Shown piece by piece: positions 13,936 to 24,001 of a DNA stretch of 32,000 nt (its first letter is position 1; every line of letters begins with the position of its first letter). The stretch is from positions 30,001 to 62,000 of the forward strand of contig JASBSB010000008.1 in NCBI GenBank assembly GCA_030149205.1, written 5' to 3'. The position numbers were made by a program, and so were the translations under genes. The notes under the pieces are model-generated. The model saw only the letters and a program-made list of their open reading frames with translations. It made no database searches and was not told the DNA's origin. The DNA comes from Candidatus Heimdallarchaeota archaeon. Lineage in GTDB: Archaea > Asgardarchaeota > Heimdallarchaeia > Heimdallarchaeales > Kariarchaeaceae.

Positions 13936-16698
13936 TTATGGTGTCGAGGGTTTATTTATTCTTCGGATCGCAAAAACAGTCAGTGCAATTAAACCAATTG
14001 AAATGAAGATCGATCCTGAGGCAAGGACCTGCCTGTTATCAAAGAATGCTTTACTGATCTGAGACGCCACCACATTGACCTTTAAGGTAGCAATATGAAC
14101 ATCAACTGAATTAGATAGTGGGCTTGCTCCTTCAGAATTGAATGCTTGAACCCAGTATGTGTAATTTTGCCCCCTCGTAAGATTTACATCTCGATACTGA
14201 AGTGAAGTTACATTACCAACGATATTCAAAGATTGATTAACAACTACGTACTGATATACGAGATAATACAGAACAGGTCTACCACCATCGTATGTGGGAG
14301 CACTCCAACTCAAGAGCACCTGTGTCCCATTTACTTTAGCTGTTAATGGTAAAGGTGGACTGGGTGCTGTGGTGGTTATGACAGATTTGAGCTCTGAAGT
14401 GCTGCTCTGACCCAGTATAGTAACAGCTGTCACGAAATAGGTGTAATTTACACCTTTTGCGATTGAATAATCTCTATAATTTGTTCCAGAGTTATTAAAT
14501 CCAATAAGATGTGCATTACCTGAGAGTCCTCTATAAATATTATATTTGAGTATAGGATAGCCTCCAGTATCATTAGGACTATTCCATTTTATGAGTACAT
14601 GGTTTGAAAATAACTCTAGAGTAACATTGGTTGGCGTGGATGAGGCCCTACCAGGTTTTAGGTTGATAGAAGATGAATTCATCCCATAACCTTTTGAATT
14701 ATAAGCAGAGACCTTGTATTGATAGGTAATCCCGTTCACCAGGTTTGTATCTTTATAGGAAATTCCAGTTATATTTGAAATTCTGTAAAAATTAACTGAG
14801 TTGTTACTTCGGAATATTGTGTAACCTTGAATTACAAAACCTCCGTCATCAAAAGGAGTCAACCAACTGACTACATTTGCTTTATCACTTACTACACCAG
14901 ATATACTTCTTGGGGCACTGGGAACTCCTCCAACCACTAATGAACTAATTTTTGAAGCCAAACCTTCACCTTGATTATTGGTTGCACTTACCTTATAGTA
15001 GGCGTGATCCTTGTTTGTTACACCGTTATCAGTGTAATTTAGTAAACTGGTATTTCCTATCCACACAAATGAGTTAGGATCGGAGATTGAGCGATAGACT
15101 GAGTAGTGTAATATGGGATAACTGTTATCAAATGGTTTAGACCATGATAGGTACACTAAATTATTCGCTGATTGAATATCAATTATTTGGGGAGCATAAG
15201 GTGTGTTTGCTACCTTGAGTTTTATTTCATTAGAATACCCACTTTCATATTTCTGATTCAGAGAGGTAACTACATAGAAATAGGTCTTCAAATTAACAAC
15301 AGATGAGTCTACAAATGATAATGATGAAATATTTGTTGCAATTTTTGTGTAGGAACTTCCAGAAGTTATAGATCTATAAACATTGTACCCAACAAATGTA
15401 AATCCCCCATCTGTTGCGGGTGAAGTCCAGTTCAATATTACAGTGTTATTAGATGCAAATCCAATCAATGAGGAAATCGTGGGTGGGGCACCTGTTGAAA
15501 AAGTGGACACCATGGTAGAAAAAGTTGACTCTTGGAATGAGTTGTATGCCGTAATTTTATAATAATAGGTTTTACCATTAATTACATCGAGGTCAATATA
15601 CCCTGTTTTTGTCGTGTTCTCACCTATCTTAACAAATGTCCCACTTGCGCTGTCAGACCTATAAACACCATACTTTGTGAGAGGTTTTCCACCAGTTAAT
15701 GATGGGGGGTCCCAAGAAAGTGTGATCTTATTTAACCCCCCAACCGCAGACGGGTTTAATGGCTCAGTAATCGTCCCAGATGGAACAGCTGAGAATTCTT
15801 TAGAATAAATTGATTCTCCAAGGCTATTGATTGCAGTGACAACAAAATAGTATGTTTGACCGTTGGTTAATCCAGAAATAATTGCACTGGCTGAAGTAAC
15901 AGTTGAACTTAAGGTATATCCTAAACCAGAGGTAGATGAGGAATAAACCTTATATTGAGTAATCGGAGAACCTCCATCCCTTGGGGGTTTCCATGATATT
16001 CCGATGGTAGAATCTGAAGAATTTGTGGTAAATACGGATGGGGGTTGGGGCTTTACTGTAGAGAAAGTCAAACTAGAATAACCTCTTGAGGTATGATATG
16101 AGGTGAAATCATCTGCTGTTGTAGAAACTGCCCACATAATATCAATTTTGACATTAGGAGTAATTTTGTAATCCTGAGAATCGCCAGTATCTAATAATCT
16201 GCTAAACTCAAGAAGAGTTGTAGAAGAGTTTGCCGAGCCTCCATAAGATAGGATGTTCTCCACACTGTCCTTTGCATGAGATACAGCTCCTGTCCCGATG
16301 TTATCTTGAATGTAAGCCCCTGTGGCATCTACATAGCCAATATAGATGTCAGCTCCTGCCATTTTCGTTGAAGGATTTGCATTTAGCCCTATTGATACAT
16401 AACCTGCAACCTTTGCAGCCATTGCAAGATATATAACTGACTGATTTAAAGCATAATAGACATAAAATGAAGAGGCGGAGTCTATTAAAGCAAATCCATC
16501 ATATTCCCCTGGAGAAATAATTCCGTCATGAATTACCTCAGATGAACTAACAGCAGAGGGTACATAAACTGTTTCAGTTGGATTTATATTAGCTAAGCCA
16601 GTCTGATCTATATAGATCCCAGATTGAACTACCAATAAAAATATTAGAATAAAAATCAAGTGAAATTTTTTTGACATATTACCAAAAATTCGGGTCAT
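13936..16698 (-). CDS. Surface protein: signal peptide + DOMON domain + 7 fibronectin type III repeats + C-terminal TM anchor
   Basis: KMAGADIYIGY (Met codon 16360-16362), EFSRLLDTGD, SYHTSRG (His codon 16093-16095), then seven W..P..DGG...Y...Y.Y.V.A.N repeats. Confidence 0.9.
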   Translation of the reverse strand: MTRIFGNMSKKFHLIFILIFLLVVQSGIYIDQTGLANINPTETVYVPSAVSSSEVIHDGIISPGEYDGFALIDSASSFYVYYALNQSVIYLAMAAKVAGYVSIGLNANPSTKMAGADIYIGYVDATGAYIQDNIGTGAVSHAKDSVENILSYGGSANSSTTLLEFSRLLDTGDSQDYKITPNVKIDIMWAVSTTADDFTSYHTSRGYSSLTFSTVKPQPPSVFTTNSSDSTIGISWKPPRDGGSPITQYKVYSSSTSGLGYTLSSTVTSASAIISGLTNGQTYYFVVTAINSLGESIYSKEFSAVPSGTITEPLNPSAVGGLNKITLSWDPPSLTGGKPLTKYGVYRSDSASGTFVKIGENTTKTGYIDLDVINGKTYYYKITAYNSFQESTFSTMVSTFSTGAPPTISSLIGFASNNTVILNWTSPATDGGFTFVGYNVYRSITSGSSYTKIATNISSLSFVDSSVVNLKTYFYVVTSLNQKYESGYSNEIKLKVANTPYAPQIIDIQSANNLVYLSWSKPFDNSYPILHYSVYRSISDPNSFVWIGNTSLLNYTDNGVTNKDHAYYKVSATNNQGEGLASKISSLVVGGVPSAPRSISGVVSDKANVVSWLTPFDDGGFVIQGYTIFRSNNSVNFYRISNITGISYKDTNLVNGITYQYKVSAYNSKGYGMNSSSINLKPGRASSTPTNVTLELFSNHVLIKWNSPNDTGGYPILKYNIYRGLSGNAHLIGFNNSGTNYRDYSIAKGVNYTYFVTAVTILGQSSTSELKSVITTTAPSPPLPLTAKVNGTQVLLSWSAPTYDGGRPVLYYLVYQYVVVNQSLNIVGNVTSLQYRDVNLTRGQNYTYWVQAFNSEGASPLSNSVDVHIATLKVNVVASQISKAFFDNRQVLASGSIFISIGLIALTVFAIRRINKPSTP

Positions 16699-16811: not shown

Positions 16812-18362
16812 TTATCTGTTATTTTTCAATTTATATCTTTTTTTTGCTATTAAATGGATTATAAATATCGGGATGAGAAAGTTGATAAGATCTATCTCAG
16901 CTGGTGAAGCGGTTGATCCTGATTTAGAGGGTAGACTTTTAAAAGGCGAAGTTTGAAGAAATGAGGTAAATCTAATCTGTCTTTTCCAGAGGTTTTCTGA
17001 TCTAAGATTAATTAGTGTTTCAATAATTTGTTGAATTAGATTATTAAATTTTGTGTTGTTCAGATCTAAGTTTGTTTTAACATTGAACAGCAGCTTTAAT
17101 ACACCAGATAGCCCTTCTCCCAATGAGAGATCAAAAACGTTTTGAGGTAAAATGCTGTTTTTTAATAAAATTAGTTCCTTTGAGTTATACCTACCTTGAA
17201 TTAATTCATTCAGTACAAACCAGCTAATGATATCTTTAGTCTTAGTTTTTTGCGCCTCCTGCAACATCTGCCAAAGATTAAGAAGAACCCATAAGACACC
17301 TATGGTTCCCTTATTAAAGCTATCATGCTGAACATATTCCACATTTCTATCCAAGAATCCCATAAAAGTCGAATTCTCCTTCAACGAACTGAAGAGATAA
17401 TTTACGCCCTTAATTATAGAATTATCAAATTCAGAGCTATTTAAGATTAATTTAGACTCATATAGCCCATAAAGTATTCCAGCAACCCCTTCATCGTAAC
17501 CAATTTTGGTGACGGAACCATTTATCTCTGTTTTCCAACTTCCATCCGCTTCCTGGGTTTGAACGAGGAATGTTAACATTTTTTTACTGAAATTAAGGAT
17601 AGTTGAATTATTTAGGAGTTTTGCTACCTTTATAAACAGAGGAATCATTCCAGAAATCCCCCACTCATATGAGGTCTTAATCGGCATTGTCGTGTCTTCA
17701 ATGTAATACCATGGAATAATATTAAATGATTGGCCTGATAATTCAATTGAAATTGCAACAGAGAGTAACCAGTTCATGATTGAATTCATTTGAGAGAGAG
17801 AGTCTGGGTTTGGATTTTTCAAATAACGTTGATATATCAAGTCAAGTATTCCAGCACTCCCGTATTTTAGATCAGTAATAGGAATACCATAAGGATCATT
17901 AGGAAGGAAATAAGCATATCCCCAATGTGGTATTGTACTTGAATTCAAAGCTTCATTAAAAAGCTCGTTAATACCTTTATCAACGTACTCTAACCATATA
18001 TCAGCTCCATTGGACCAACTTAAAATAGTTTTTAATATTCCTGCAGCCCCATATTTTTTCCCAGGGTATACGGTGTTTTCTCCAGAATACTTACCCCATG
18101 CAGGAACTTTTACTCCCTGAAATTCTATCTGAGAACTCCAAATCTTTTCCAAGGTTGAGTTTATAACGTCACGTAGAACAGAAGAATTCAGACCATGATG
18201 ATAAAATTGAATTAATGTATCAGTGATTCCAGCCGCTCCAAGTTCATATCCATAGTAAGTTTCTGTATCATAATCTGGAAGTGATGGAAGTTGGGCATAT
18301 GTTGAGTGATTTATGAGACTCAACAATAACAATAATATCAAGCTCTGTGAAGGGATTTTCAT
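16812..18362 (-). CDS. Exported, membrane-anchored LanC-like alpha/alpha toroid lacking zinc ligands
   Basis: Seven GxxG helix-cap repeats (GAAG, GAAG, GSAG, GISG, GVAG, GTIG, GLSG), signal peptide, C-terminal TM + KKRYK, no Cys in the protein. Confidence 0.75.
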   Translation of the reverse strand: MKIPSQSLILLLLLSLINHSTYAQLPSLPDYDTETYYGYELGAAGITDTLIQFYHHGLNSSVLRDVINSTLEKIWSSQIEFQGVKVPAWGKYSGENTVYPGKKYGAAGILKTILSWSNGADIWLEYVDKGINELFNEALNSSTIPHWGYAYFLPNDPYGIPITDLKYGSAGILDLIYQRYLKNPNPDSLSQMNSIMNWLLSVAISIELSGQSFNIIPWYYIEDTTMPIKTSYEWGISGMIPLFIKVAKLLNNSTILNFSKKMLTFLVQTQEADGSWKTEINGSVTKIGYDEGVAGILYGLYESKLILNSSEFDNSIIKGVNYLFSSLKENSTFMGFLDRNVEYVQHDSFNKGTIGVLWVLLNLWQMLQEAQKTKTKDIISWFVLNELIQGRYNSKELILLKNSILPQNVFDLSLGEGLSGVLKLLFNVKTNLDLNNTKFNNLIQQIIETLINLRSENLWKRQIRFTSFLQTSPFKSLPSKSGSTASPAEIDLINFLIPIFIIHLIAKKRYKLKNNR

Positions 18363-18380: not shown

Positions 18381-18962
18381 CTAACCTTGTGGGATCAAAA
18401 ATCCAAGACCAAAGGTCTCAAGTATTGAGTGACCATACACATATTTTCCACCTGTGCCTGCAATAATTGCAGTTAGTGCAGCGCCAATTATTATTGGAAT
18501 AAGGTATAGAATGGGTAATATGATATGTTTTCTGTCAAAAATATGAGCGTGATACCTCCATCCAACATATGTCTTCAATATTAGAGGGGTTAATAATACA
18601 AATAAAGTGTAGATTGATAATCTAACTTTGTATTCTAGCAAGGTGTTTTCGATAGCGGGTGATACTCCACCTGCAGATTGAAAACCTGTATAACCAGCAA
18701 TCCCATATCCTAATATTCCCAAGATTAAAAGTATGTAACTTGAAAATTCAAATCTCCTTACATATCTTAAAGATAAATCCCATGTATCTTGAGAGATCAT
18801 TTCCCTCTTCAATAGAATATCTACTAATACTTTTATTCCGAATGCTGTAGCACCAGCTGCGAAGCTCATTAATATCCCTACTATTGGGAAATGAATCACT
18901 GCTGCATGACTTGATGCAAAGAACTCAGTCATCATATTTACAAAATCATCAATTATAGTCAT
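18381..18962 (-). CDS. DUF2231-like 4-TM membrane protein
   Basis: HAAVIHFPI N-terminal motif and GGKYVYG C-terminal motif as recalled for DUF2231. Confidence 0.7.
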   Translation of the reverse strand: MTIIDDFVNMMTEFFASSHAAVIHFPIVGILMSFAAGATAFGIKVLVDILLKREMISQDTWDLSLRYVRRFEFSSYILLILGILGYGIAGYTGFQSAGGVSPAIENTLLEYKVRLSIYTLFVLLTPLILKTYVGWRYHAHIFDRKHIILPILYLIPIIIGAALTAIIAGTGGKYVYGHSILETFGLGFLIPQG

Positions 18963-18963
18963 A

Positions 18964-19896
18964 TTAGAGTTCCTCCTTTTTGATCAGATAAACTGAAATG
19001 GTAATAACAGTGAAAAACAAAATTGAGCCTATCATCAATCCCACAGATACATTATAGAACAAGTAAATATCAACATTATATTTTAAAGGCTCTGAAGCTA
19101 TTGAGGTGATAGATGTATTAATTGCTCCACCATATTTCAACGAAGATAACGCAAATTTTGCATATGACAATGAACTATCTGGTCGATGATGAACTTGACT
19201 AGCAAAGTACATACTAACATTGTAATTTGGTGAAAATTTAACATCTGAACCCTCTTTATCATTTGTGACTAAAGCACGTTTGGCTTCTATTACATATCCA
19301 AGAACTTTTCCTGAGGTATCGTTTAATAAGACCTCCTCCCAATATAGATCCTGTATTTTGTCTTGAACAATAAATGGGGGTTCAGTTCCAATTGGTGTTG
19401 TATCACCTAATACCTTAGTTTTATCTGCAGATCCAAAAACCCACATGTCATCGCCGATAGACATTGGCTTCATATCTGAAGATTTAAAGTTCTCAGGATC
19501 TGTACTGTTGTCTGCATCCCATTGTATTGCAATCCAAGGTATGTTTTCATCGAATGCAATCCTAAAATAAACAAAGTTTTGATCAAATACAGAGGAAATT
19601 GAGCCTGAAACACCAAAAGCTTCTATGTTAATTTTTGGCACTTTCTCCCAAGCAGCTGAAATTTGATTATCCCCCACAACAATGAGAGGTAGATTTTTCT
19701 GTGATGAAGAAGAATCAAATTGTGATGTCATATTATACGATAACAATTCTCCTGATACCTGGGGTGCATTAAGGTAAATAGATTTTTGAGGTGCGTTCGC
19801 TCCTTCAGCTACTTGCGGTACACCTAATATCAGAAGAAAGATAAAGCTAGTTGTTAATAATTTAAATCTTAAGTCTTTCATAAAAGTTCCTCTCAT
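18964..19896 (-). CDS. Exported DOMON-like protein with C-terminal TM anchor
   Basis: Signal peptide, YFRIAF..WIAIQW, PMSIGDDMWVFG, IEAKRALVTND and ASQVHH. Start is 19896 or 19881. Confidence 0.65.
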   Translation of the reverse strand: MRGTFMKDLRFKLLTTSFIFLLILGVPQVAEGANAPQKSIYLNAPQVSGELLSYNMTSQFDSSSSQKNLPLIVVGDNQISAAWEKVPKINIEAFGVSGSISSVFDQNFVYFRIAFDENIPWIAIQWDADNSTDPENFKSSDMKPMSIGDDMWVFGSADKTKVLGDTTPIGTEPPFIVQDKIQDLYWEEVLLNDTSGKVLGYVIEAKRALVTNDKEGSDVKFSPNYNVSMYFASQVHHRPDSSLSYAKFALSSLKYGGAINTSITSIASEPLKYNVDIYLFYNVSVGLMIGSILFFTVITISVYLIKKEEL

Positions 19897-22616
19897 TTCA
19901 GTTTGGTTATTACGTATATTCCTGCTCCAAAGACTCCAATAATTATGAAGATATTTGAGGTTGTCATAATTGCAGAGATGTCAAAATTGTCATAGTATAT
20001 CGTCTTATAGTTTGACACTGTGGTCACTTGGATAGTTTCGACATTGACTTTCTGTGGAGTTCCTGTAACAATATCTGACCTTTGACTGAGTCCTATTTGA
20101 TTCTTTGCAATGATGTGATAAGAATAAGAAACATTATTTTTAACATTATAGTCAATAAAATAAAATTCAGTAGTATTAGCATAATTTGTAAATGAGCCAT
20201 TTCCCTCTGCTCGATACACCAGATATAACTGAGCAACAGATTTGTTTGACTGAGGTGGTAACCAACTGAGAACTATAATTTTGTCTCCAGCTAAAATACT
20301 TAATGATTCTGGCTTATCTGGTATTGAAGATGTTAGAACACCTACGTAGGCAGATCGATCCCCTTTCCCAGCTTCATTTACAACCATTATAGAGTAGTAA
20401 TAAGTTTCATCAAAAATTATATCTGAGTCCGTATAGTTTAATTGACTTGTCTTTCCAATTAATATTGGGGGAGAATCTTTTACAAAGGTTCTATAGATTT
20501 CATATGATAAGTTAGAAGACCCTCCAGTATCAACCGAAGATTCCCATTTAATAACGTTCGAAACTCCAGTAAAAACACCTGTTAAGTTAGTAACATTTGA
20601 GGGCAAGCCAATCAACTTGATGTAGGTTACAGGACTAGTTGTTCCGTATCCATTTTTGTTAACAGATATAACATAATAGTAGTAATTTGTTCCTGGTGTC
20701 ACATTTTTATCTAGAAAATAACGAAGTTGGGTAGTTTTTGTCTTTGAGAATGAGGAATTATCAGTAGATCGATAAATATTGTAATGGGTAATTGCCGCTC
20801 CACCATCATCCTTAGGAGCTTTCCAAGTGAGACCAATACTCGAAATATATGATTTTACAGTTAAATTTTGAACTTGCCCAGGGGTCGTTGAAGGAGATCC
20901 GGTAATTTGGAAGGAGTATCCACTCTCTCCAACGCTATTATTTGCAGTTATTTGATAAACATATGTCTGTCCATTCTTTAATCCAGTGTCATTGTACGAA
21001 TTAGTACTTGTAATCTTTACTAAAGAAAATGTGCCACTTTGGGCGTCCATTTTATAAACGGTGTAATTTAGTACTGTATATCCTCTACCATCTGCTGGAT
21101 TCCAAGATATGTAAACAAATGAATCACCCTCTGTTTTTGTCAAGTTTGTGGGTGGAAGAGGAGTATTAGCGATTGTGACCCTTTGCACAGCTGATTTCTT
21201 GCTTTCACCCGCTTGATTTATCGAAGTTATATAATAATAGTAAGTGAATGAATTTAAGACTCCATTATCCAGAAAGCCAGTTTGTGAAGAATTTGTCCCT
21301 ATATTGACGAAATTAACATTATCTGAACTTCTATATATCTTGTACTGTGTAATTGGATACCCTCCATCAGTGACCGGTTTTGTCCATGAAAGATTTGCAG
21401 AATTATCACCATTTATAATTGAAAGAAACCTTGGTTCTGAAGAAACACCAATGGGAGTGACTGAAACAGTCGTTGATTTGAGACTCTCATTATATATGTT
21501 TTCTGATGTTATATAATAATAATAAGTAAACCCATTTAGAACAGGAGTATCTGTGAATGAAGTGGATTGAGTTGTTCCAATCTTAAGAAAAGGTCCACTT
21601 AGATTCATGGATTTATACACATTGTAATGTATAGGAATACCTCCTGTACTCGTTGGTGTTAACCAGTTTATAGTAACCTGTTCAGAGGTGTAGGAGGCAG
21701 ATACACTTCTCGGTTCAGTAATCAAACCCAGAGGTAATGCCACAATAACATTTGAATCTCCACTCTCACCATTGTTATTCACCGCAGTTACCTTGTAGTA
21801 GTAAATTACCCCGGTTGTAACTGTGGTGTCAACATATGAAGTCGAAGTAGAGGTGCCTACCTGAACATAGGAGGAACCATTGTTATCTGATCTATAAATT
21901 TTGTAGTTAATTAGAGGAGAACCTCCATCTCCTGCTGGCGGTGTCCAAGAGAGTGATACACTAGTCTCTGTGACTGATTTAGTTAATGTCGAAGGCGCTG
22001 CAGGTGGTCCTATAAAGACATATCCCCCACTTACCTTGCCAGCTATGGTATGTTCTATGCTGATATCGTCACTACTTGCATGTAATGCCCAAACCATTGT
22101 AACTAGTTTACCAGGAATGAGTACTTTGTCTGCTACAGAATCACCTGTATTTAGATTCCTTGAAAATTCTAGAATTGTTCGGGTACTAGATTCACTAGCT
22201 GCAAAAAGGTTTATGTTTTGAATACCGTCTGGTGGAGGGACTACTTTACCTATTCCAAATGCATCAAAAATGTAGGCTTGATTTAATGTGGCATCAAACC
22301 CTCCAGTAATCATATCATATCCTGACATTGCACCAGTACCCTCATATCCAACAGATATCCATCCTTTTGCGTCCATTTCCAGAGCCATAAAAATTTCTCC
22401 CCTTATGATATTATAGTACATTTTTACGTAGGGAGAAGTTTTCATGACAAGTGAGTGAGTATATTCATTTGTTCCAATAACACCATCAATAGAAATAGCA
22501 TCGGTTGAAATTTCTGTGGTCGGTTTGAATTCAACCCCAGTTAGCTGTATATTATTCATACCTAGTAGAAGAATGAAAATTATGCCAAAACTTACGAAGA
22601 TAGATTTCTTCATCAT
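19893..22616 (-). CDS. Surface protein: signal peptide + DOMON domain + 7 fibronectin type III repeats + C-terminal TM anchor (paralog of 13936-16698)
   Basis: GAMSGYDMITG (Met codon 22326-22328), EFSRNLNTGD, IEHTIAG (His codon 22050-22052), seven FN3 repeats. Start moved to MMKKS at 22616, just downstream of a TATA box. Confidence 0.9.
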   Translation of the reverse strand: MMKKSIFVSFGIIFILLLGMNNIQLTGVEFKPTTEISTDAISIDGVIGTNEYTHSLVMKTSPYVKMYYNIIRGEIFMALEMDAKGWISVGYEGTGAMSGYDMITGGFDATLNQAYIFDAFGIGKVVPPPDGIQNINLFAASESSTRTILEFSRNLNTGDSVADKVLIPGKLVTMVWALHASSDDISIEHTIAGKVSGGYVFIGPPAAPSTLTKSVTETSVSLSWTPPAGDGGSPLINYKIYRSDNNGSSYVQVGTSTSTSYVDTTVTTGVIYYYKVTAVNNNGESGDSNVIVALPLGLITEPRSVSASYTSEQVTINWLTPTSTGGIPIHYNVYKSMNLSGPFLKIGTTQSTSFTDTPVLNGFTYYYYITSENIYNESLKSTTVSVTPIGVSSEPRFLSIINGDNSANLSWTKPVTDGGYPITQYKIYRSSDNVNFVNIGTNSSQTGFLDNGVLNSFTYYYYITSINQAGESKKSAVQRVTIANTPLPPTNLTKTEGDSFVYISWNPADGRGYTVLNYTVYKMDAQSGTFSLVKITSTNSYNDTGLKNGQTYVYQITANNSVGESGYSFQITGSPSTTPGQVQNLTVKSYISSIGLTWKAPKDDGGAAITHYNIYRSTDNSSFSKTKTTQLRYFLDKNVTPGTNYYYYVISVNKNGYGTTSPVTYIKLIGLPSNVTNLTGVFTGVSNVIKWESSVDTGGSSNLSYEIYRTFVKDSPPILIGKTSQLNYTDSDIIFDETYYYSIMVVNEAGKGDRSAYVGVLTSSIPDKPESLSILAGDKIIVLSWLPPQSNKSVAQLYLVYRAEGNGSFTNYANTTEFYFIDYNVKNNVSYSYHIIAKNQIGLSQRSDIVTGTPQKVNVETIQVTTVSNYKTIYYDNFDISAIMTTSNIFIIIGVFGAGIYVITKLK

Positions 22617-22634
22617 TAGTGAAATTTGATATAG

Positions 22635-22646
22635 TAAGTATATTAA
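22635..22646 (-). promoter_or_regulatory. Putative TATA-containing promoter core (TTAATATACTTA) of the DOMON/FN3 operon
   Basis: Lies 19-30 nt upstream of the start at 22616. An identical 12-mer is at 3032-3043 upstream of the gene starting at 3014. Confidence 0.55.
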
Positions 22647-23013
22647 TATATGCAATAAAACAAGAACTACCCTCATATTGTGCAATAATTTTCTCAACAT
22701 AATACTATGACAAACTTGTGTGCTATTTTTCTGGTTAAAATGGGGATTTTTCCGAAATCAATATAATATGCGTTTTAATAAAACACATAATTAATAAAAA
22801 TTTTCCATTATTAAAACATCAAATTGTCTATTTAAGTGAAGTTTGAAAACTTTGATAGTGTACAACCAGGTAATAAGAAAAAAAATATCCTCTTAATTAG
22901 ACATGAGTAACTTTAAAATATTGAATTCAAATCTATAAATTGAAAATTTATTGATTCTGAATCTTCGATAAGTAGTTATTCAACTAGGAGTAAAGAAAGA
23001 TGAGGTTGAAAAA

Positions 23014-23160
23014 ATGAGTAGTAGACCTAAACCAAAAAAGTTAGATGATGACTTTGATGACGATGACTTCGATGATGATGACTTCGAAGATGAAGATGAT
23101 GAAGATTTCGACGATGACTTCGATGACGATGACTTCGAAGATGAAGATGATGAAGATTAG
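23014..23160 (+). CDS. Unannotated 48-aa hyper-acidic microprotein MSSRPKPKKLDDDFDDDDFDDDDFEDEDDEDFDDDFDDDDFEDEDDED
   Basis: Hand translation: ATG 23014, TAG 23158-23160, SD GAGGT at 23002-23006. Synonymous GAT/GAC and TTT/TTC variation preserves Asp and Phe. Confidence 0.75.
   Translation: MSSRPKPKKLDDDFDDDDFDDDDFEDEDDEDFDDDFDDDDFEDEDDED
23059..23157 (+). repeat. 48-bp direct repeat with 51-bp period (1 mismatch) inside the acidic ORF
   Basis: 23059-23106 versus 23110-23157, differing only at GAT/GAC (23076 vs 23127). Confidence 0.9.
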
Positions 23161-23171
23161 GAGGTGAAAGA

Positions 23172-23267
23172 ATGACAGTTAAGAAAAGCACCAAGAAAAC
23201 AGAATCAAAAGACAGCGGAAAGATGAATGAAAGCAAAAAAGGTAAAGCAAAGAAGGGTAAAAAATAA
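23172..23267 (+). CDS. Unannotated 31-aa Lys-rich microprotein MTVKKSTKKTESKDSGKMNESKKGKAKKGKK
   Basis: Hand translation: GGAGGTGA SD at 23160-23167 overlapping the previous stop, ATG 23172, TAA 23265-23267. Confidence 0.75.
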   Translation: MTVKKSTKKTESKDSGKMNESKKGKAKKGKK

Positions 23268-23281
23268 CCTTTACTGACCCA

Positions 23282-24001
23282 CTAACTTTCAATTAACATC
23301 TGCCTTTTTAGAGCATTATACACTTTAAAGATTAATTTACCAGAAGAAGTTTTATCTCTGGCCTTAAGGGTTTTGCCCTCAACCAATCCTAATTTTCGTA
23401 AGGTCTTAATGTGACTATTTACTGTGGATTGGGTCAAGTTTGTATATTTTGCAATTTCTTTCTCTCCTACCTGAGGTTCTATGAACTCCAAAACCTTAAG
23501 GTGGGGGAGGGTAATTCGGTGACTTTGAGTATTAAAAACCTGAAATTGTTTTTCAAAACCTGGCTTTCGAACCAACTCATAACACTTAAGGGTTTGACCA
23601 GTTATAACCCTATACAACTGAGAAGTCAAATGTACAGCCTGCTGGATCACAAAACGAAGATACCTCTCCCCGTATGTGCAATCAAATACAATCTGCGAAC
23701 CCTCCTTTATATTTGACACAAGATTCAGTGCTATCTCGAATGGTTCTTCCTCTAACTGAACATATGAGCATTGCAAACTCTGAACCGGTATTTCCAATTT
23801 TGAATAATGGGTCGATGTTTCCTCTATGTTAACATTTAATTCTGCTCTGGACTCAGATAAATCTTCATCTGAGACCACTATAACAAGTGAAACATTAGTA
23901 AACTTCAACATCGACATTATTTGTTTAATTAATCCTCGTCCTGTTTTCGAGGAACAGACAAAAATTGTGTCTACTTCTTGTGACAAGAGTGAAGGGTCCA
24001 C
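23282..24001 (-). CDS. CARF-like Rossmann domain + winged-HTH transcriptional regulator (Csa3-like architecture)
   Basis: IVFDCTYGERYL resembles the CARF v.dxTgGxK/R motif. C-terminal EKEIAKYTNLTQSTVNSHIKTLRKLGLV is a wHTH. Confidence 0.65.
   Translation of the reverse strand: MDPSLLSQEVDTIFVCSSKTGRGLIKQIMSMLKFTNVSLVIVVSDEDLSESRAELNVNIEETSTHYSKLEIPVQSLQCSYVQLEEEPFEIALNLVSNIKEGSQIVFDCTYGERYLRFVIQQAVHLTSQLYRVITGQTLKCYELVRKPGFEKQFQVFNTQSHRITLPHLKVLEFIEPQVGEKEIAKYTNLTQSTVNSHIKTLRKLGLVEGKTLKARDKTSSGKLIFKVYNALKRQMLIES

Follow-up and report, generated by a model that had tools for sequence, protein, structure and literature searches.

The closest described systems come from eukaryotes, bacteria and phages. 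The eukaryotic proteins prothymosin-alpha and linker histone H1 form a disordered polyelectrolyte complex, while DSS1/Sem1 (PF05160) is a small, acidic, aromatic-containing adaptor that mimics DNA. The acidic/aromatic boxes of eIF5 and eIF2B-epsilon bind the lysine boxes of eIF2-beta, and eIF3j has an acidic Trp motif; to our knowledge, the archaeal counterparts of these eukaryotic translation factors are without such tails. The acidic tips of single-stranded DNA-binding (SSB) proteins, which include the D-D-D-I-P-F end of bacterial SSB and the tip of phage T7 gp2.5, mimic DNA and dock into basic or OB-fold pockets, and the acidic leader peptide MgtL exploits intrinsic ribosome destabilization. 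Here we describe a pair of adjacent short open reading frames (ORFs) at positions 23014-23267 of a 32-kb window, which is the whole stretch of DNA that was analyzed (positions 30001-62000 of contig C9) in the Asgard archaeal genome G000 (3.3 Mb in 12 contigs, 93.5% complete, with a guanine-plus-cytosine (GC) content of ~35%). The sequence predicts that the pair is a genuine two-gene operon for two disordered micro-proteins, one acidic and one rich in Lys, and the pair is a Phe-type member of an unannotated, Asgard-wide class. The features of the pair, with lengths in nucleotides (nt) or amino acids (aa), are as follows.

23002-23006, plus strand: Shine-Dalgarno (SD) motif GAGGT, 7 nt 5′ of the acidic ATG
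23014-23160, plus strand: acidic micro-protein gene, 48 aa, 67% D/E, net charge -28
23059-23158, plus strand: in-frame tandem duplication inside the acidic ORF, 51-nt unit, 2 copies, 97% matches
23160-23167, plus strand: SD motif GGAGGTGA, perfect 8-nt complement of the anti-SD, ending 4 nt 5′ of the second ATG
23172-23267, plus strand: Lys-rich micro-protein gene, 31 aa, 13 Lys, 3 D+E, net charge +10

The translation of the acidic ORF contains 26 Asp, 6 Glu, 6 Phe, 3 Lys, and 1 Arg. Residues 1-10 form a short and basic N-terminus, which is followed by blocks of Asp and Glu, each of them closed by a Phe (residues 14, 19, 24, 32, 36, and 41). The 51-nt duplication accounts for about two thirds of the acidic tract. 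The Phe codons are biased toward TTC (five of six, vs 28% genome-wide), but no weight was given to this bias, because duplicated codons are not independent of one another. The Lys-rich ORF begins after a gap of 11 nt from the acidic stop, and its product opens with M-T-V-K-K, not with M-A-K-K-K as in most relatives. The acidic ORF ends in TAG (23158-23160), whose G is also the first base of the GGAGGTGA motif, and this overlap suggests that translation of the Lys-rich ORF is likely coupled to that of the acidic ORF. Both peptides are too small and too low in complexity to fold. The recount agreed in every respect with the original prediction made on this DNA, which had described a 48-aa acidic ORF with 32 Asp and Glu residues, six Phe, a basic N-terminus, and a net charge of about -28, then a 31-aa ORF with 13 Lys and a net charge of about +10, with GAGGT before the first ORF and GGAGGTGA, overlapping the first stop, before the second.

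The described systems would be functional analogies only. Prothymosin-alpha and H1 likewise combine a very acidic disordered protein with a Lys-rich partner, and by this analogy a charge-driven, unstructured mode of binding would be expected here. However, there is no homology detectable by Pfam, the G000 peptides are 5-10 times smaller and are encoded side by side, and prothymosin is without the regularly spaced aromatic residues that the acidic peptide has. DSS1/Sem1 is likewise small, stand-alone, disordered and rich in Asp and Glu, with conserved aromatic residues, and it belongs to the eukaryote/Asgard part of the tree, but the G000 peptide is far more acidic and repetitive, uses Phe instead of Trp, and has no PF05160 match at an E-value of 10, while DSS1 has no adjacent gene of a Lys-rich partner. 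The eIF boxes are short Asp/Glu tracts with embedded aromatic residues that recognize short poly-Lys tracts, a chemistry widespread in eukaryotic translation factors; these motifs are parts of large proteins, whereas the G000 peptides are free-standing, and no link to a translation factor was seen in the window. Finally, the acidic peptide looks like six SSB tips, each an Asp run plus Phe, placed in a row, but such tips occur once per chain on folded proteins, and no SSB is encoded near the G000 pair. The view in the original prediction that its comparisons were matters of analogy, not homology, holds; Pfam gave no homology to prothymosin, to H1, or to the RNA polymerase delta subunit.

The acidic ORF is the only one with a D+E fraction of at least 0.45 among 29,018 six-frame ORFs of at least 25 aa in the whole G000 genome, and the other acidic tracts of this genome are tails of larger proteins. 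ORFs of 25-60 aa with a Lys fraction of at least 0.38 number two in the genome, one of them being the Lys-rich neighbor, and ~3e-5 such ORFs would be expected to start in the 100 nt that follow a given site. The pairing of the acidic and the Lys-rich ORF by chance can be excluded. The GGAGGTGA word occurs 88 times genome-wide, and eight of these occurrences, including the one before the Lys-rich ORF, precede an ATG with an ORF of at least 30 aa, vs one or two for two control words; SD use in this genome is limited. At the RNA level, no Rfam family reached its gathering score in the region. Weak matches resembling C/D-box small nucleolar RNAs (snoRNAs) scored 17-23 bits vs cut-offs of 40-60, and they arise because the Asp codons create UGAUGA (GAUGA) words. 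The folding of the region was no better than that of shuffled sequences (z = -0.49).

To look for relatives of the pair, 400 genomes of the phylum were searched with two patterns that are independent of each other. The pattern of two Asp-Asp-Asp-aromatic units matched 57 genomes, with almost nil matches for the reversed control, and the pattern that opens with MAKKK and ends with two Lys and a stop matched 61 genomes, with clean controls. Of the acidic matches that were fetched, most are stand-alone ORFs, 27-83 aa long, in which W, F or Y recur at intervals, and several of them share with the G000 peptide a short N-terminus consisting of Gly-Pro plus Lys/Arg. The two patterns coincide in 13 genomes, on the same strand, with the acidic ORF first, and at most ~200 nt apart. 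With G000, G008, G055, G074 and L063 added, the pair is present in at least 18 Asgard genomes, which fall in four families (f1, f2, f5, and f31), and wherever the two ORFs are linked the order is always acidic then basic. The features of this class are an acidic ORF of ~26-83 aa with at least 45% D/E and regular F/Y/W, a Lys-rich ORF (19-31 aa) that follows after 11-125 nt in the same orientation, and an SD motif before each of them; in G000 they are found in 23014-23160, in 23172-23267, and in GAGGT and GGAGGTGA, respectively.

An alignment of the pair region from five genomes in genus g79 gave 91% identity and no gap columns for the acidic ORF and 86% identity for the basic ORF, while identity fell to 62%, with 18 gap columns, in the spacer and to 59% in the region downstream. 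The differences within the acidic ORF are 54 synonymous vs 20 non-synonymous, and the GAGGTGA motif is conserved at the same place 5′ of orthologous acidic ORFs in family f31. The coding-type conservation together with the conserved GAGGTGA therefore indicates that these are protein-coding genes under purifying selection. The original prediction had proposed looking in related genomes for conserved ORFs, SD motifs and charge pattern, and it had named frame-breaking indels and unlinked ORFs as observations that would speak against it. In the relatives both ORFs are kept open with all three of these features, no frame-breaking indels were found, and the two ORFs are linked with the acidic one first, although each partner also occurs alone in some lineages. 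Its guess of an Asgard-like genome was also borne out, since the G008 relative from the same family is a Candidatus Heimdallarchaeota metagenome-assembled genome.

Several members of the class have other arrangements. The locus L039:1480-1722 (minus strand, genome G129) encodes a single 81-aa protein with a basic half of Ala/Lys/Pro repeats and an acidic half with spaced Phe, which is possibly a fused form of the pair. In family f31, the Trp-type pairs are accompanied by a basic orphan protein of ~270-285 aa without a Pfam match, which is divergent from the acidic micro-ORF and is possibly its dedicated partner or regulator; two paralogues that were tested are 34% identical. The genes of this orphan come from two different loci.

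L060:351-1190, minus strand: f31 basic orphan
L058:368-1180, minus strand: f31 basic orphan
L054:1836-2651, plus strand: f31 basic orphan
L059:295-1149, minus strand: f31 basic orphan

In G055, which belongs to the same order as G000, the pair is divergent from the gene of a 234-aa protein with a PARP-type, DNA-nick-sensing zinc finger (L073:366-1070, minus strand). A 32-aa acidic ORF with spaced Trp was also met by chance at L023:261-359 (plus strand, genome G340), in a locus retrieved because of a weak match to a winged helix-turn-helix (wHTH) domain.

The pair in G000 converges on a gene with a distinct fold prediction, which, like the class-wide distribution in which partners also stand alone, was missing from the original prediction.

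23282-24001, minus strand: gene of a Csa3-like CARF-wHTH protein, 239 aa, tail to tail with the pair

The AlphaFold2 model of this protein has a pLDDT (predicted local distance difference test) of 74.8. A Foldseek search with the model returned the Csa3 structures 2wte, 6wxq, and 6w11 at the top (226-232 alignment columns, E-values from 2e-8 to 1.5e-5), and after them the CARF domains of Cad1, Csx1, Csm6, and Cam1. The protein consists of an N-terminal CARF Rossmann-like domain and a C-terminal wHTH, with HTH_5 at residues 182-208, and is without an effector domain. The CARF signature is [DN]x[ST]xxx[RK] after strand 4 together with a polar residue after strand 1 (PMC4012209). It is present in the neighbor as D107-C-T109-Y-G-E-R113 after the strand 103-107, with S17/S18 after the strand 11-17 as the polar residue, and D107 and G111 are invariant across eight homologues. 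The neighbor shares with Csa3 the two-domain fold over its full length, the strand-4 signature and the size, even though it is only 15-17% identical to the Csa3 structures and gave no match to the Pfam family Csa3_N. On its model and its CARF signature it can be regarded as a Csa3-like CARF-wHTH sensor; Csa3 proteins are transcription factors that bind cyclic tetra-adenylate, cA4 (PMC8699464).

Csa3 typically lies beside cas genes (type I-A), while the conserved partner of the neighbor is the micro-protein pair, and no cas genes were found in the window. The cas genes that were found in G000 (Cas1, Cas6, RAMP, and Cas10-like) map to contigs C4 and C8. The closest CRISPR array is on C9, at a distance of ~60 kb. 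The genome has two Cas1 genes, one of them at C8:8098-8823, and several CRISPR arrays, among them those at C8:7-1957 and C8:9224-12300. At ~15.8-19.4 kb of C8, a type III-like locus (L065) contains Cas6, a RAMP protein, and Cas10. This Cas10 is unusually small (496 aa); its palm2 domain carries GGDD, and a weak mCpol-like match was seen in it as well. The presence of a Cas10 GGDD locus makes a source of cyclic oligoadenylate in this genome plausible.

The homologues of the regulator provided an independent view of the pair. A full HMMER search over 1.84 billion representatives gave six close members of the regulator family, and DNA was available for five of them. The homologue in G008, which belongs to the same family as G000 but to a different genus, is 33% identical to the G000 protein, and its locus gave the first relative of the pair: a 50-aa acidic ORF with spaced Tyr, a GGAGG motif, a 26-aa Lys-rich ORF, and directly after it a T9 run. 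As in G000, this pair is convergent on the regulator, while the flanks are unrelated, with NosD beta-helix and TPR proteins in G008 vs an FN3/DOMON protein and PheA in G000. In L063 (GC 49%), the regulator homologue P0006 faces a convergent 30-aa Lys-rich ORF with GGAGGT before it. Upstream of this ORF, the contig end cuts an acidic ORF with spaced Phe, and the second SD overlaps the first stop codon as it does in G000; an exact look-up of the Lys-rich peptide returned no called gene. Tyr- or Phe-type counterparts of the acidic ORF are located at L029:2752-2901 (minus strand) and at the cut end of L063. Overall, the pair adjoins the regulator in three of the five close homologues with DNA (G000, G008, and L063), and it does not adjoin the distant regulator matches in family f20 (L017-L019 and L026). 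The regulator tree does not separate the branches within the six-member clade and does not indicate the ancestry of the link to the pair. Within family f1 the distribution is patchy, with one of 11 other genomes positive. The genes, their pairing and their order are conserved, and the adjacency to the regulator recurs despite the turnover of the other neighbors.

Two further features could mark the ends of the transcript.

22930-22956, strand unassigned: candidate promoter/operator, inverted repeat of 12 nt, 92% complementary, 3-nt spacer
23305-23309, plus strand: T5 run, candidate archaeal termination signal, within the 3′ end of the convergent gene

A TATA-like CTATAAAT lies within the left arm of the repeat, ~75 nt 5′ of the first ATG. 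The repeat is a putative promoter/operator at most, as AT-rich DNA yields many such repeats. A scan for sigma-70 promoters and hairpin terminators gave nothing useful, its model being inapplicable to archaea.

Searches by sequence similarity with the peptides themselves came back nearly empty, as expected, because the peptides are of low complexity. Protein searches with either peptide in 40 relatives recovered the query only, and a search of 5.8 billion proteins with the acidic peptide found no homologue among 4,215 candidates. In the ESM Atlas only unnamed clusters were matched (0.79-0.84). Neither G000 peptide is in a collection of 15 billion proteins, which holds one of ten class peptides, the acidic one of G008, labeled as a hypothetical protein. 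Pfam has no family for either peptide, and the acidic peptide and seven of its relatives were unmatched even at an E-value of 10. Full-text literature searches returned no paper on Asgard together with DSS1 or Sem1, nor any account of a pair like this one when small acidic or lysine-rich proteins of Asgard archaea were sought. Within the literature searched, the gene pair is undescribed, and the new element is a Phe/Tyr-type pair that adjoins a Csa3-like sensor.

These observations can be brought together in the following mechanism. The acidic and the Lys-rich peptide would be co-produced and would associate through their charges into a disordered complex. The Lys-rich peptide would have nucleic acid or a different polyanion as its target, while the acidic peptide, which could resemble a nucleic-acid backbone with aromatic "bases," would compete for, buffer or chaperone the Lys-rich one. 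The Csa3-like protein would control the operon upon cyclic oligoadenylate from the type III CRISPR-Cas system of the genome, and so the operon would possibly be switched by this messenger via its neighbor. Taken as a whole, namely a real operon, a co-made charge-driven complex, competition with nucleic acid, and CARF control, this is our best reading, which we put forward tentatively and a little short of an even chance. Complex prediction on both peptides gave a score of 0.00 with no controls alongside, and it speaks neither for nor against binding. As for the overall interpretation in the original prediction, its conserved and linked genes have stood, while its functional part remains one of analogy.

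A number of observations weigh against this mechanism. The charges of -28 and +10 are unequal and do not match one to one. Either partner can be found without the other: acidic ORFs without a partner adjoin a cyclophilin gene in four f20 genomes and a PNP_UDP_1 phosphorylase gene in f31, and Lys-rich ORFs stand alone in f20 and in nine genomes of f12. In the f12 genus g24 (L078-L086), nine of 15 genomes have a conserved 22-26-aa MAKKK peptide whose ORF follows a GGTGA-like site, and the 420 nt upstream of it contain no acidic ORF. At such low complexity, the homology of the Phe/Tyr and the Trp types is unprovable. With regard to control by the neighbor, the regulator is convergent, not divergent, to the pair, and the 9-12-mers shared by the G000 and G008 promoters, among which a common operator was sought, were not above shuffles. 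The regulator homologues L061 and L062 have no pair at their locus (two of five), and most pairs elsewhere are without such a regulator alongside. Three genomes of the same genus, which are 82-89% complete, have neither the regulator nor the acidic pattern; these genomes are very distant from G000, with PheA only 33-38% identical.

The strongest of the other explanations is that each peptide independently serves larger partners of a shared pathway, and that their adjacency reflects co-expression only. The acidic peptide would then dock basic surfaces, in the way of DSS1/Sem1, eIF3j or eIF5, and the Lys-rich one would bind ribosomes, RNA or the nucleoid. This explanation fits with the occurrence of both kinds of peptide alone in conserved housekeeping neighborhoods (f20 and f31 for one, f12 and f20 for the other), with a spacing of 11-125 nt, which shows that tight coupling is not universal, and with a charge stoichiometry far from 1:1. 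On the other hand, the fixed order and the recurring adjacency over four families argue for something beyond co-expression, the 81-aa protein of L039, basic in one half and acidic with Phe in the other, suggests that both parts work together, and no profile matched the peptides to DSS1/Sem1 or to any other family. We consider independent adaptors unlikely, though a serious contender.

An inducible defense or dormancy system is an improbable alternative. Here the CARF-wHTH sensor would trigger a harmful polycation, which condenses nucleic acids or damages membranes, and its polyanionic antidote, in a manner resembling a toxin-antitoxin. Such a role would agree with the CARF sensor that adjoins the pair in three lineages with unrelated flanks, with the GGDD of the genome's Cas10, and with the patchiness within family f1. 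However, the window is no defense island, as it holds surface proteins, PheA, transporters, and a dehydrogenase, and elsewhere the pair or its peptides are in stable housekeeping synteny conserved across genera, unlike accessory defense genes. The locus does not classify as a type II toxin-antitoxin, since neither peptide has a Pfam match, and no toxin or antitoxin domain was found in them; PADLOC was not searched.

It is still less probable, indeed quite doubtful, that the acidic ORF is a sensor in cis of the MgtL type, in which it would destabilize the ribosome, so that access to the stop and the SD of the Lys-rich ORF reports Mg2+, polyamine or translation status. Intrinsic ribosome destabilization is described as triggered by acidic stretches close to the N-terminus (PMC9718836, PMC12673854), and the Asp/Glu run of the G000 peptide begins at residue 11, in a short ORF directly upstream of another one, with the second SD overlapping the first stop both here and in L063. 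But a sizeable gene to be regulated is lacking, because downstream there is only the 31-aa ORF, the T5 run and the convergent gene. Moreover, many relatives have ORFs 68-125 nt apart with their own SD each, and conservation at the amino acid level extends to the spacing of the aromatic residues and to the peptide sequence, while an acidic run alone would need neither. Lastly, it is hardly credible that there is no gene pair at all, but a GAY-rich microsatellite-like repeat and an A-rich stretch left open by chance, or a non-coding RNA, because, in spite of the low-complexity DNA with its recent 51-nt duplication, the lack of detectable sequence homologues of the peptides and the sub-threshold snoRNA-like matches, the same layout of two ORFs with SDs recurs in DNA that cannot be aligned with the G000 region, the changes among the relatives follow a coding pattern, the two ORFs would be adjacent by chance with a probability of ~3e-5, and neither Rfam nor the folding of the region points to an RNA.

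Other features of the genome were also noted. Upstream of the pair, the minus strand of the window encodes two paralogous surface proteins of ~920-935 aa with a DOMON and several FN3 domains (13936-16698 and 19893-22700), and between them, also on the minus strand, a LanC-like protein and two proteins without a Pfam match (16812-18362, 18381-18962, and 18964-19896). This group may be a cell-surface modification cluster. Elsewhere in G000, eL32, uL24, the glycine-cleavage H protein, and a small Zn-ribbon protein have long, Asp/Glu-rich C-terminal tails, and the tail of the Zn-ribbon protein has spaced Phe like the acidic micro-protein.

G000:C4:668152-668685, C8:198876-199451, C7:165445-165966, and C2:256937-257341: acidic-tailed proteins (L069-L072)

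With regard to the Lys-rich peptide, it matches the tails of Asgard tailed histones in size and Lys content (bioRxiv 10.64898/2026.07.02.735847). The idea that it acts as a histone tail was dropped, as no histone-fold gene (PF00808, PF00125) was found in G000; in a genome of 93.5% completeness this is no proof of absence, and it is unusual for an Asgard archaeon.

A more far-reaching idea, which we regard as speculative and rather unlikely, is that the pair is the output of a second messenger. A DNA-binding protein that senses a ligand, in G000 the Csa3-like sensor and in other genomes other proteins, would switch on a polycation together with its DNA-like, polyanionic chaperone, and both peptides together would compact or release nucleic acid in a reversible way, or form coacervates. 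If this were true, the closest prokaryotic relatives of eukaryotes would have a CARF-controlled response of a new kind, and also a free-standing forerunner of the recognition of poly-lysine by acidic-aromatic segments in eukaryotic chromatin and translation factors. The CARF link would also bring under cyclic-oligoadenylate signaling a target other than nucleases and cas genes. Genes of this kind are systematically missed by homology searches and length cut-offs, and only searches by composition and pattern found them. If our reading of the pair is correct, Asgard archaea hold a conserved and almost wholly unannotated class of micro-proteins, paired as acid and base, whose members are among the most highly charged known gene products. 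Acid/base pairs are a hallmark of the disordered-protein biology of eukaryotes, as in histone chaperones, DSS1, and the tails of translation factors, and free-standing versions in the sister group of eukaryotes would offer a simple system of synthetic peptides bearing on the origin of such chemistry.

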